Source of the DNA: a virus
Taxonomy: Duplodnaviria > Caudoviricetes
Virus record (IMG/VR): IMGVR_UViG_3300029305_004678
Coordinates: 32,001 to 96,000 of that record
DNA: 64,000 bases
Strand: one strand, 5' to 3'
Below, one piece after another: positions 1-3,600 of this stretch. Every line of letters starts with the position of its first letter. Within the stretch, counting starts at the first letter, position 1. Under the pieces are notes generated by a model, which was not told the DNA's origin, searched no databases, and saw nothing but the letters and a program-made list of their open reading frames with translations. Made by a program: the position numbers and the translations under genes.

Positions 1-491
1 TATTTGCTGCTGAAGAATGCATTAATGAATTTCTTATTTACATAATAAAAATTCATGTATCTCATGTATTCTAATATAGATAAGCCATCTATACTCTTAA
101 TACCTATTTTATTCAAAGAACTTAGAGTAGATATTGCACATCGTATGATACTTATGCCTTTAACATTAACCAATACGTCTTTTTCATTAAGATACTCAAA
201 TATTTCAGCTTCGCTTGGAGCATCTCCGCATGCAGCTTTTATATCTAATTCAAATAATGATTCTAAGTACAATTTCAAAATATTTCTGTCAGACAATTTG
301 GAGAATTCAAATCTATTTACTATACACGCTTTAATTCTATCTGGAATACTATCTAGATTAAAGAATTGAAGAGTTTTATACTCTATATTTGATTTAGATG
401 AAAGAGCATAAACTATTATAATCTCATCAAGTTTAGTCATACTTTCAACAGAAATCACACAATTCTCAACCGTCATTGCTGCTTTATTCAT
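1..491 (-). CDS. Hypothetical early protein, 3' end runs off the window
   Basis: ATG at 491 with RBS GAAAGGA; frame open to the window edge; TATATTAT motif at 553-560. Confidence 0.7.
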   Translation of the reverse strand, partial: MNKAAMTVENCVISVESMTKLDEIIIVYALSSKSNIEYKTLQFFNLDSIPDRIKACIVNRFEFSKLSDRNILKLYLESLFELDIKAACGDAPSEAEIFEYLNEKDVLVNVKGISIIRCAISTLSSLNKIGIKSIDGLSILEYMRYMNFYYVNKKFINAFFSSK

Positions 492-589
492 ATTCTTAAT
501 TCATCCTTTCATTTTTATGCTTGTTTTAAATTCTTTCGTATTTTCCATTCCCATAATATATAAATCTATAATAGGAAATTTACAAAAAA

Positions 590-624
590 AAAATATGGTG
601 GAGATAATTTCTCCACCATATTTT
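590..624 (-). terminator. Intrinsic terminator
   Basis: aaaatatggtggaga/tctccaccatatttt plus U-tract. Confidence 0.8.
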
Positions 625-625
625 A

Positions 626-1090
626 TTAATCATTAATTCCAACTTTAAATGTCATGATAACCTTTGTACCCTTATCAGGTGTGGTTGTTGATACTTCAAA
701 TTCATCACAGAGAGAATCCATAATCGTGAAACCCATACCAGAAAATCCCTCTTTACTAGACCATCCAGATTGGAATGCTTGTTCAAGATTCTGAATTCCA
801 CAACCATTATCAATTATTGTAATTACAAGAGTATTATTATTTCTATAATTACAAATAATATGAACCATACCAGGAAATTCTTCAGTATATGCATGCTCTT
901 TGATATTGGTTATAGCTTCTCCTACACATGATAATATATTACTTATTTTCTCTAGACTAATTCCTATTATGTTTTCTTTGCAGAAAGCTTCAATTGTCAT
1001 AGTAGGCTTTAGATGATCATAATAATTGGTCATAAAGCTCAGGTGCATAGTAATATTACTTAGTAAGATACATTTTGATGGCTGTTTCAT
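626..1090 (-). CDS. spoIIAB: SpoIIAB-like anti-sigma factor / Ser kinase (GHKL ATPase fold)
   Basis: N-box EAITNIKEHAY, G1 DNGCGI, G2 SGMGFTIMD, KGTKV; N-terminal MHLSF resembles SpoIIAB MHLEF. Confidence 0.85.
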   Translation of the reverse strand: MKQPSKCILLSNITMHLSFMTNYYDHLKPTMTIEAFCKENIIGISLEKISNILSCVGEAITNIKEHAYTEEFPGMVHIICNYRNNNTLVITIIDNGCGIQNLEQAFQSGWSSKEGFSGMGFTIMDSLCDEFEVSTTTPDKGTKVIMTFKVGIND

Positions 1091-1096
1091 AATAAA

Positions 1097-1486
1097 TTAC
1101 TCCTTTATCTTTTTCATATTGATAATTAAATAATCACCTTTTACATCCATAGAATGAGCTTCATAGTTTAAAGGAATTGGATAATCTTTTAGATGATCAA
1201 CATCGAAATCTTTTACCCTTCCTTTAAATAATACAATACCTAGAATAGTTCTAACTAATACCTTTGGATTAGTAGATTCAAAGCATTCTAGAAAGTTGAT
1301 AAGATCTTCTACCTGCTCTGGTAGATCTTCACAGTCACAATCAGGCGTAGACTCTTCATCATTGTGTATAAGAATATTTTTAAAGTCTTCAGCGAGTGTA
1401 CCAAAACATGAAGATATAGTTATTGACTCGACTTCATGTAATGATTTAGTATTTATGTCTTTTACAGTTTTCATAAAAGATAACAT
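1097..1486 (-). CDS. Hypothetical protein, co-transcribed with the anti-sigma gene
   Basis: 129-aa ORF, RBS GAAAGGA, CATATTAT upstream. Confidence 0.7.
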   Translation of the reverse strand: MLSFMKTVKDINTKSLHEVESITISSCFGTLAEDFKNILIHNDEESTPDCDCEDLPEQVEDLINFLECFESTNPKVLVRTILGIVLFKGRVKDFDVDHLKDYPIPLNYEAHSMDVKGDYLIINMKKIKE

Positions 1487-1570
1487 CCTTTCTAAATATT
1501 TTCATATCTATAATATGTATCTAAATAAAAAATAAAGGCTACTAGAGGGATCCCTCTAGTAGCATTAATT

Positions 1571-3244
1571 TTAGAAAACAGGTGCAGAGATTTTTTCTTT
1601 ATCCGCATCTAGACACAATGTCAAACTATATAAGCTCTGAATAGCTTCTTTATCAGAAGTTCTAACACCCTTACCACCAAGATTAAAGTAGTGAGCTTTA
1701 GATTTAAGCTGTTCAGCAAGCTCTGCATTTGTCTCTTCTGTAAAGGCTCCCTTTACGGTTACCTGGTCACCATCATAATCTCCACCTATTCCATCTAGAT
1801 ATAGATTACTAATATTCAAAGTATCAATAAATTTATTAGAAGTATTAGTACCAATATCTTCTTGACGAATATAGGGATAATTTTTATAGAATTTACTACC
1901 TACAACCATAGGTTCAGTTCTTGTGGTAGAAGCTATTTTAATCTTGGTTGGAAACTGATTAAAATAAGTGTCTATAGGATACCTGGTAATCAGTATATGT
2001 TTATCTTTTGTAGCTTCTACTGCTGCTTGATAGAGTATATCACACCAAGTTAAGTCTCGTTCCATTATAGGCATCTTACCTATATCAGATTTTGCATACT
2101 CTTCAGCAGTCATATTATATCCTTTAAATCTATAGCGTACAGTAATACCTTCTACTGTAGGAACTTCTAAAGGAATAAATCTATTTGAGAAACCTGTCAA
2201 AAATCTATCTATTTCTTTCTTAATTCTTTCATCAGAAAATTCTACTTGATAATCTTTCGGATGTAAATAGGTTATACTCTTATCTTTATTTATATAGGGT
2301 ATAACCGCATCTCCAGAGAACTCATTTTCAAACATTCTTCTCACATGATATACTATGAACGGAAGGAAGTTTGCACAAGCAGATGCTAACGGAAGTACAG
2401 AATAATCGAGATCTGCTTCTACATCCTCTAACCGTTCAACCTTGAGTTCTGGAGCCGATAGAACTAGACGAGTAGCATAGTCTGTTGTTTTGGACATAAC
2501 ACCCTGTCTAATAATACCAAATTTGCCAGGAATAAGATTGCTAGTTTTCTCGCCATTTATAGTAGTACCAGATCCAAACCAGTCGTATATTTGAACAAGA
2601 GTTTCCTGTATACGACCACGAGTAGCAGAAGTTAGATTTAAACCATATTCGGAGGACTCTCTAAGAGCTCTAACAGAGATCAACAAAGACCTATACAATT
2701 CATTGATTGCTCCTAAAGATACTTTGCCTTTATCGTTATTAACGTCTCTATAGAATGCTGGGCATACTATATATTTCTTAATAAACATTTCAGGCTTACC
2801 GATATAGCTCTCTATAAAGTCTACACGCATGTCTCTTTGTTTAGATCCAGTACGCTTAATCTTAATTTTCTTAATATTGTCTCTAAGAAACCTAATACCA
2901 TTATCACCATTTTCCGGATCTTCTTCAAGTTCACCCTTATCATTTATCTTGAAATATTTTATACCATGAACGCATGCTTTAACATTAGAATCAACTTTGC
3001 ACCACATCTTATAAATTAGAGGGTTTAAAAACTCCTCATGAAGATCGATGTATGCAAATGTATTAGCGCGATCATATTTGGTAATTCCAAATATTTCATT
3101 AGATAATAATCCATCAGAGGTAGGAACTGAATTTCGAACGAATGAAATGGGATTGGTAATCTCTTTGAGATCATTGACTTTTACCAGTCTTTCGGGGTCT
3201 ATAAGACTCACTCTAAGGTGATCACCCCTTATTAAATCTGGCAT
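1571..3244 (-). CDS. Phage multisubunit RNA polymerase beta' N-terminal/catalytic subunit (probably virion RNAP)
   Basis: DGLLSNEIFG, TTDYATRLVLS, LITRYP, catalytic GGDYDGDQ, SDKEAIQSLYSLT; start MPDL at 3244 with RBS AGAGGTGA. Confidence 0.92.
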   Translation of the reverse strand: MPDLIRGDHLRVSLIDPERLVKVNDLKEITNPISFVRNSVPTSDGLLSNEIFGITKYDRANTFAYIDLHEEFLNPLIYKMWCKVDSNVKACVHGIKYFKINDKGELEEDPENGDNGIRFLRDNIKKIKIKRTGSKQRDMRVDFIESYIGKPEMFIKKYIVCPAFYRDVNNDKGKVSLGAINELYRSLLISVRALRESSEYGLNLTSATRGRIQETLVQIYDWFGSGTTINGEKTSNLIPGKFGIIRQGVMSKTTDYATRLVLSAPELKVERLEDVEADLDYSVLPLASACANFLPFIVYHVRRMFENEFSGDAVIPYINKDKSITYLHPKDYQVEFSDERIKKEIDRFLTGFSNRFIPLEVPTVEGITVRYRFKGYNMTAEEYAKSDIGKMPIMERDLTWCDILYQAAVEATKDKHILITRYPIDTYFNQFPTKIKIASTTRTEPMVVGSKFYKNYPYIRQEDIGTNTSNKFIDTLNISNLYLDGIGGDYDGDQVTVKGAFTEETNAELAEQLKSKAHYFNLGGKGVRTSDKEAIQSLYSLTLCLDADKEKISAPVF

Positions 3245-3261
3245 ATAAGCATCACCTCTTT

Positions 3262-3273
3262 TATTAATATGTG
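3262..3273 (-). promoter_or_regulatory. Late promoter variant CACA-N6-TA (also 54757); AACT variants at 10881 (+) and 18971 (-)
   Basis: Same spacing and position as the consensus copies. Confidence 0.6.
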
Positions 3274-3300
3274 AATTAAGTGGACAATAAAAGGAAAAAC

Positions 3301-3600
3301 AAAAAAAAAATAGTGGAGAGTGTTGTACACTCTCCATCTACTTCTTTATTGACTTTTCGACATCCCATAGTAGCGATTACGAGGAATACAGTCAATCACC
3401 TCTACAACTACTAATTGCTACGTCACTTTTGGGAACTATTAGTACCTGCGCAGGTAACTGGTTGATGTCACTAGTCCCCATAATGACTTATAATCAACCT
3501 GGTAGGATTTGCTCGTATTTATCGCCTCAATCACCTACCTTTATAGATGAGGCGTTTATTTTGAAGATATAGATATTTCCAATTGAAATATAATACCTTC
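3301..3600 (-). ncRNA. Candidate structured ncRNA: 5' hairpin, three tandem pseudoknots, intrinsic terminator
   Basis: No ORF; own AACA-N6-TG promoter (3600-3611); three stem-loops whose loops pair 6-7 bp with downstream segments; terminator with U10. Confidence 0.7.

Follow-up and report, generated by a model that had tools for sequence, protein, structure and literature searches.

The window examined in this work, by which we mean the whole stretch of 64,000 nucleotides formed by bases 32,001-96,000 of a 159,799-bp IMG/VR virus record (IMGVR_UViG_3300029305_004678; G+C about 34%), carries on its minus strand a gene for a SpoIIAB-like ATP-binding protein, which together with the gene upstream forms a compact two-gene unit, referred to below as the cassette. 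SpoIIAB is the anti-sigma F factor and SpoIIAA serine kinase of the endospore-forming Bacillota (TIGR01925; structures 1L0O, 1TH8, 1TID and 1TIL), and our analysis revealed that the viral gene, specific to phages, descends from the SpoIIAB branch in the HATPase_c_2 anti-sigma/serine-kinase superfamily. We are highly confident of its identity as a SpoIIAB-derived and non-canonical protein, in which the ATP pocket has been preserved and the face that meets the partners has been rebuilt. As judged from sequence comparison, the protein of this cassette, which lies behind a motif of the early type, probably interferes in a non-canonical manner with the sigma-factor control of the host. As far as we have found, no phage version of the anti-sigma/kinase component in the sigmaF switch has been described before; a full-text literature search gave nothing relevant on a phage-encoded SpoIIAB or anti-sigma F.

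Family, fold and descent of the SpoIIAB-like protein

The assignment to the SpoIIAB branch is carried by sequence, fold and phylogeny together. The protein matches the Pfam family HATPase_c_2 (PF13581) over profile positions 21-127 of 127 (9.4e-16; 58.4 bits against a gathering cut-off of 27.4), and in NCBIfam it is matched best by TIGR01925, the SpoIIAB equivalog (93.6 bits, E 9.3e-27, over positions 3-135 of 137), whose curated cut-off of 135 bits is not reached; the most SpoIIAB-like of its close relatives (P0007) scores 114.6 bits on the same model. For calibration, TIGR01925 gives 203-215 bits to three true SpoIIABs encoded in spoIIAA-spoIIAB-sigF operons and 80-85 bits to two true RsbWs. 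The RsbW models themselves, NF003144 and TIGR01924, give the window protein 45.6 and 30.3 bits, well short of their cut-offs of 145 and 155, so that the hidden Markov model (HMM) search against SpoIIAB and RsbW, proposed as a check in an earlier note made from the letters of this DNA, comes out with 93.6 bits for SpoIIAB versus 45.6 bits for RsbW. The complete GHKL motifs described in that note, including SGMGFTIM, are also recovered, namely the N box EAITNIKEHAY, the G1 box IIDNGCGI and the G2 box SGMGFTIM.

The same family is indicated by structure. The leading sequence matches in the PDB are all SpoIIAB (1TH8, 1TIL, 1TID and 1L0O, E about 2e-12), and the AlphaFold (AF2) model built from 41 sequences, with a mean predicted local distance difference test score (pLDDT) of 88, resembles 1L0O and 1TIL with template-modelling (TM) scores of 0.82-0.91 and root mean square deviations of 1.8-1.9 A, the RsbW structures coming next. 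By BLASTP, a true SpoIIAB shares 37% identity with the protein and the closest of the other paralogues 28%.

Among 5.8 billion clusters, five close relatives of the window protein are found (38-89% identity), and the six phage proteins form one clade on a long stem, with a Shimodaira-Hasegawa-like approximate likelihood ratio test (SH-aLRT) value of 96 in a tree of 94 rows. In the phylogeny against SpoIIAB and RsbW, the other check proposed beforehand, IQ-TREE joins this phage clade to SpoIIAB with a support of 95/88, apart from RsbW and the other paralogues. Inside the group made of SpoIIAB and the phage proteins the tree is a polytomy, in which two very long-branched paralogues, best disregarded, are also placed and from which the origin of the clade within SpoIIAB is not separable; moreover, a position outside all cellular SpoIIABs is not rejected by the approximately unbiased (AU) test (p 0.34). 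What stands of the description as SpoIIAB-like is therefore the agreement of sequence, fold and tree, but the protein lies below the equivalog cut-off for SpoIIAB and lacks the two arginines Arg20 and Arg105 treated in the next section.

As for the distribution of the gene, scans of viral contigs with the protein as query and with the clade alignment gave no relative beyond the window's own record, and a metagenome scan returned canonical cellular-type SpoIIABs only. In a tblastn search against 50,697 phage records no isolate phage gave a match, and the 13 matches obtained are all unverified human-faecal virome scaffolds labelled 'Bacteriophage sp.'. These scaffolds were rejected as a precedent: the three examined of the 13 (UNVERIFIED scaffolds MT835480.1, MT835652.1 and MT837369.1) hold whole spoIIAA-spoIIAB-sigF operons, their SpoIIABs reach about 200 bits on a profile built from cellular SpoIIABs, and they are likely bacterial DNA in virome preparations. 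Operons of cellular type on scaffolds of this label call for caution in surveys of phage-borne sporulation genes.

The ATP pocket and the partner face

The numbering of SpoIIAB residues used here is that of G. stearothermophilus, to whose SpoIIAB the window protein was aligned with HMMER (1TH8/1L0O, E 2e-12); E46, N50 and R20 correspond to E58, N62 and T30 of the window protein. In previous studies, Asn50, His54, Gly55, Thr99, Gly107, Gly109 and Thr130 keep Mg-ATP in place, Glu46 acts as catalytic base and Arg105 serves to stabilise the transition state during phosphotransfer (PMC10345196, PMC4166321). Arg20 and Lys41 mediate the interaction with sigmaF, and the SpoIIAA-binding site comprises Arg20, Thr49, Glu104, Glu16, Ser45 and Glu39 (PMC10345196), among which Arg20 has been termed essential for the SpoIIAA interaction (PMC4166321). 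For comparison, a cellular set of 153 SpoIIABs was assembled, of which 79 come from species-representative genomes (Clostridia, Erysipelotrichales and Bacilli) and the other 74, all full-length, from metagenomes. Arg20, Arg105 and Glu46 are invariant in all 153 (79/79 in genomes and 74/74 in metagenomes), and Glu16 and Lys41, tallied in the genome SpoIIABs only, are found in 78 and 77 of the 79.

In the phage clade the nucleotide-binding residues have hardly moved. Asn50, His54, Asp81, Gly83, Gly85, Gly107, Gly109 and Thr130 are identical in all six members, in spite of identities of 38-89%, and the two remaining positions (Gly55 changed to Ala, Thr99 to Ser or kept as Thr) stay inside the variation of cellular SpoIIABs. 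The catalytic base Glu46 is kept in five of the six members, and the window protein is one of them, as the earlier note had read from an ungapped alignment. The partner face is a different matter. The column of Arg20 holds Thr, Ala or Ser and that of Arg105 holds Phe, Leu or His, with no arginine at either in any of the six; the lid is two residues shorter, and the position of Glu104 is deleted or changed. Two further readings of that note, the threonine in place of R20 and the loss of the lid Glu-Arg pair before SGMG, agree with the alignment, where the shortened lid of the window protein has no such pair.

The changes are not scattered along the chain; they cluster in helix alpha1, in the alpha1-alpha2 loop with its insertion of two residues (...CKENI...), at the start of alpha2 and in the lid. 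Moreover, I13, N40, I44, K48 and F148 are fixed in the clade (6/6 each), and the clade's substitutions are carried by none of the 153 cellular sequences. Since many of the substitutions on the alpha1/alpha2 face are conserved within the clade, they point to a new function or constraint on the partner face rather than to decay. On the other hand, the idea of a "deregulated anti-sigmaF" that would still bind sigmaF in the canonical way becomes doubtful, because Arg20, described as a sigmaF contact, is gone in six of six members. Arg105 is missing as well. The clade can in this sense be regarded as a natural experiment, in which the ATP pocket has been fixed and two arginines invariant among the 153 cellular sequences have been replaced, and it offers a clean test of a nucleotide-loaded SpoIIAB scaffold without the canonical docking and catalytic residues.

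Layout, promoter motif and setting of the cassette

Both open reading frames (ORFs) that had been joined into a two-gene unit in the earlier note are present, and their signals are collected in Table 1. With terminators on both sides, the cassette has the appearance of an insulated two-gene unit, the terminator that follows the gene of the RNA polymerase (RNAP) beta' subunit being predicted to insulate it against read-through. The two genes are separated by 6 nt, and the AAGGAG ribosome-binding site of the SpoIIAB-like gene sits inside the last codons of the upstream gene, an ORFan.

Table 1. Features of the cassette and its borders, in window coordinates (vRNAP, virion RNAP)
Feature	Position	Strand	Remark
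Intrinsic terminator, 11-bp stem and T-run	1538..1563	-	closes upstream RNAP beta' gene
Early-type (AR9 vRNAP-like) promoter motif CATATTAT-AGATAT-G	1503..1517	-	predicted +1 G at 1503
Upstream partner gene, acidic ORFan, 129 aa listed	1097..1486	-	probably 125 aa from ATG 1474
SpoIIAB-derived GHKL ATP-binding protein, 154 aa	626..1090	-	both Arg20 and Arg105 missing; nucleotide pocket intact; alpha1/alpha2 face rebuilt
Intrinsic terminator, 15-bp stem and T-run	590..624	-	directly 3' of stop codon; closes two-gene unit

The early promoters of phage AR9, which are used by its virion RNAP, have the form AAATATATATTAT-N6-G(+1) (PMC5312081). In the genome studied here a similar motif, TATATTAT-N6-G, recurs at 26 strict sites, which show extra preferences for A after the octamer, for A-T before the G and for A after it; at 11 of these 26 sites an ORF of at least 80 aa starts 5-80 nt downstream on the same strand, compared with a mean of 1.6 and a maximum of 5 for random positions. 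The cassette motif, CATATTAT-N6-G, has one mismatch to the recurrent motif (C for T at the first position) and agrees with all the extended preferences, and the window has 5 occurrences of the extended pattern versus 0.47 expected. The cassette motif lies 17-29 nt upstream of the start codon of the ORFan and represents a match to a motif, not a start site that has been measured. Of the early promoter claimed in the earlier note, the part that holds is an upstream match to a motif of the early type that is enriched before ORFs, but the match has one mismatch and its start is a predicted one; early expression of the cassette is accordingly best put as a reasonable prediction. A late-type AACA-N6-TR motif is absent from the cassette strand, and the loose AACA-N6-TR pattern shows no enrichment in the window (68 found versus 92 expected), so that an antisense AACA-N6-TA match at 1405-1416(+), inside the ORFan gene, could be due to chance. 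Just past the cassette terminator, a second early-type motif, TATATTAT-GGGAAT-G at 546-568(-), precedes the next ORF on the minus strand, which has its ATG at 491, extends beyond the window start and belongs to no family; units of the early type thus appear to be stacked head to tail.

The ORFan is acidic (pI 4.7) and has no family in Pfam, NCBIfam, PHROG or PADLOC. Among 1.84 billion representatives only two are related to it (75% and 48% identity), its AlphaFold model is unusable (pLDDT 44), and its neighbours in the ESM Atlas are all below 0.8. Its true start is most likely the fifth codon, because the homologues and the Atlas record begin there and a GAAAGG ribosome-binding site is correctly spaced before it. 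Considering that the ORFan occupies the place of spoIIAA, a cryptic SpoIIAA (STAS) was tried as its identity and found unsupported, with an hhalign probability below 1% against the profiles of SpoIIAA, SigF and SpoIIAB. Homologues of the ORFan and of the SpoIIAB-like gene lie on contigs of the same sizes, 2,178 bp (P0008 and P0012) and 69,959 bp (P0023 and P0013), which suggests that the two genes travel as a pair.

Judged by its genes, the source of the window is an AR9-like jumbo phage with multisubunit RNAP genes, in line with the earlier description of a phage with its own RNAPs. The gene at 1571-3337(-) encodes the N-terminal part of the beta' subunit of a jumbo-phage multisubunit RNAP (phrog_2986, 2e-79), and the best relatives of beta' among isolates are Listeria phage LPJP1, AR9-like Bacillus phages and Staphylococcus jumbo phages (31-34% identity). 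The completeness of the IMG/VR record is about 65% (CheckV), which limits every result on the absence of a gene from its 160 kb. With this limit, the former statement that neither spoIIAA nor sigF is nearby can be extended to the whole record, where no STAS/SpoIIAA, sigma-70 region 2, SigF or SpoIIE/PP2C was found by Pfam or by HMMs from cellular operons. The three cellular operons checked against NCBIfam carry spoIIAA, spoIIAB and sigF, and by ORF size and position a SpoIIAA-sized ORF lies upstream in 53 of the 79 cellular loci and a sigma-sized ORF downstream in 66. The only sigma-like signals of the record are two weak Sigma70_r4 matches below the cut-off (E 0.004 and 0.04), situated outside the window at G000:C1:5383-5475(-) and G000:C1:111554-111664(-), the second inside a 741-aa ORF, and they are possible phage-side partners of the SpoIIAB-like protein.

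Six related jumbo-phage contigs were collected via the beta' gene (51-82% identity). Neither cassette gene is found within 10 kb in any of the six, nor anywhere in the five relatives searched as whole records, which include one 90% and one 97% complete. Since synteny with the relatives is kept on both flanks, the cassette belongs to a variable island directly downstream of beta', and it is an accessory module. The island extends over window positions 1-1570 and about 2.7 kb before the window start (G000:C1:29255-33570); it is flanked by syntenic blocks (own -2745..1571 versus L183:12556-17988) and also holds small ORFs with weak or no matches in the relatives. The beta' match in three relatives (L183:10001-12556, L186 and L188) takes 2,556 nt for 557 residues, which implies an insertion of about 885 nt in their gene. 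The insertion contains an ORF (L183:11589-12215) that shares 28% identity with an ORF of the window's genome located 7.3-8.4 kb upstream of the window start, and is probably an intron or a mobile endonuclease element; the window's own copy of this part of beta' is uninterrupted.

Possible functions and relation to known systems

The function that we regard as most likely can be outlined as follows. Soon after infection, an ATP-binding and partner-binding protein would be made, and it would bind a component of a host circuit of the SigF/SigG/SigB type, most likely the sigma factor. Because the residues for SpoIIAA docking are gone, the host antagonist SpoIIAA might be unable to reverse the binding, and phosphorylation of SpoIIAA would not be needed. 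The acidic ORFan, if co-transcribed as the layout suggests, would probably be the cognate cofactor or adaptor, and the outcome would be a host frozen before the expression of forespore or stress genes, in which lytic growth finishes. That the protein engages such a host partner switch and blocks sporulation, for which a sequestration of sigmaF is plausible, we put forward tentatively, with belief somewhat short of even; that a phage-captured anti-sigma/kinase, through its rebuilt face and its acidic partner, locks a sigma factor or the switch beyond reversal by SpoIIAA seems rather doubtful to us.

Several observations weigh against interference with host sigma-factor control. The loss of Arg20 makes canonical sigmaF binding unlikely, and Lys41, the other sigmaF contact, is kept in only two of the six clade members. 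The score of 93.6 bits on TIGR01925 is only slightly above the level of true RsbWs. The clade is not uniform either: P0006 has Ala at the catalytic Glu46, and P0003, on a 42.8-kb contig, is a homologue of 120 aa that is shortened at the N-terminus and has a frameshift-like C-terminus, so in these lineages the gene seems to be eroding or independent of kinase activity. The function of the cassette is moreover dispensable, because the two near-complete relatives do without both genes. As for the promoter, the C in the cassette motif stands where 26 of 26 strict sites have T, and the AR9 virion RNAP is reported to be sensitive to single deviations (PMC5312081). Finally, host inference gave no candidate, and no tRNA gene is present in the window.

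Part of this evidence bears also on another explanation, that the protein is a still-active serine/threonine kinase whose substrate is new, being the ORFan or a protein of the host, and that it works by phosphorylation, not by sequestration. It would account for the retention of Glu46 in five members and of the Mg/ATP residues in six, and it has a parallel in L095, a paralogue that occupies the place of RsbT in an rsb operon and likewise has neither of the arginines and a lid just as short. Proteins of the RsbT type are active kinases, and the lid motif GWS(S/T) of the phage protein resembles that of another RsbT-type-like paralogue. However, the transition-state Arg105 is missing throughout the clade and the catalytic glutamate itself in one member, the ORFan has no STAS similarity to offer as a substrate (hhalign below 1%), and neither a STAS nor a PP2C partner is found in the 160 kb. 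Taken together, we regard such a kinase as unlikely.

The close coupling of the two genes raises a further possibility, namely a self-contained phage module in which the protein holds the ORFan or another phage protein active or inactive in an ATP-dependent manner, without any host sigma factor. Anti-sigma genes are usually co-transcribed with their partners, and the 6-nt gap, the ribosome-binding site placed inside the upstream gene and the co-occurrence of both homologues on contigs of the same size would all fit, as would a clade-conserved face in place of the canonical one. Nothing, however, ties the ORFan to a process, as it has no recognisable fold or family, and near-complete relatives do without both genes; this arrangement too appears improbable, though it deserves to be kept in mind.

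It has also to be considered that the protein might act as a dominant-negative subunit, forming with host SpoIIAB a heterodimer that cannot dock sigmaF or SpoIIAA, so that sigmaF is released prematurely and sporulation is derailed. For this the core fold would be suitable (TM about 0.9) and so would the loss of both partner-contact arginines, and phage genes that mis-time sporulation sigma regulons are reported to lower spore yield (PMC10294663). An identity of only about 30-43% to any cellular SpoIIAB speaks against heterodimers, and the clade-conserved new surface and the partner ORFan are left unexplained, which makes the proposal quite improbable. The least probable account, by a captured host gene drifting to loss or by mis-binned bacterial DNA without phage function, could invoke the close relatives that lack the gene, the truncated P0003 and the 13 'Bacteriophage sp.' matches, read as ordinary spoIIAA-spoIIAB-sigF operons and probably bacterial DNA, but it is already largely refuted by the position of the gene between syntenic phage blocks on a 160-kb phage contig with phage-type signals, by a clade of six intact proteins that have in common a long stem and an ATP pocket kept by conservation, and by substitutions that occur in 0/153 cellular sequences. 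An anti-defence role against the sigma-containing MZA system was considered as well and dropped, there being no link of MZA to a SpoIIAB-type partner and no PADLOC match.

Interference with host sigma-factor control, if true, would be of some consequence, since sporulation offers protection from phages and at the same time traps them. The protein would then be the first anti-sigma factor of a phage to have arisen from one of its host, and would act as a viral brake directly on the formation of endospores. Moreover, if factors of the sigmaF type were blocked irreversibly, the gene would provide a compact genetic tool with which sporulation could be arrested at stage II, and also a marker for phages of spore-forming gut Clostridia.

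Among the known systems, cellular SpoIIAB is the closest. The phage protein shares with it the size of about 145-155 aa, the Bergerat fold and the N, G1, G2 and G3 boxes including SGMGFTIMD; it keeps Glu46, Asn50, His54, Asp81 and Thr130, and SpoIIAB is its best family by sequence, fold and tree. It differs by the two-residue insertion after alpha1, by the lid shorter by two residues and by the reversed charge at Glu36 (Lys), and its gene stands outside any spoIIAA-spoIIAB-sigF operon, beside an ORFan in a jumbo phage. With RsbW (anti-sigma B) and the RsbT-type paralogues it has in common the single-domain GHKL architecture of partner switching. The absence of both arginines and the short lid are shared with the paralogue at the RsbT position, whereas RsbW keeps both arginines and is separated in the tree at 95/88. 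Another comparison can be made with AsiA of phage T4, an early anti-sigma protein that binds a host sigma factor and redirects or silences host transcription. The proposed likeness is that of an early phage protein acting on a host sigma factor, but anti-sigmas of the AsiA type are unrelated, small, without nucleotide binding and not derived from a host anti-sigma factor.

The nearest precedent in biological terms is given by the phage-carried homologues of sigF/sigG, spo0A, spoVT and spoIIID (Schwartz et al. 2022, 2023), which are likewise host-derived sporulation regulators and for which a manipulation of dormancy has been proposed. The 2023 survey 'Human-Gut Phages Harbor Sporulation Genes' gives 31 validated phage-carried homologues including sigF/G/E/K, spo0A, spoVT and spoIIID, and phage homologues of sigF/sigG are stated there to cut spore yield; spoIIA or an anti-sigma does not appear in its main text, Table 1 or part of its supplements (PMC10294663). 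Unlike the genes of Schwartz et al., which encode transcription and sigma factors, the gene described here represents the anti-sigma/kinase component of the switch, captured and remodelled by a phage.

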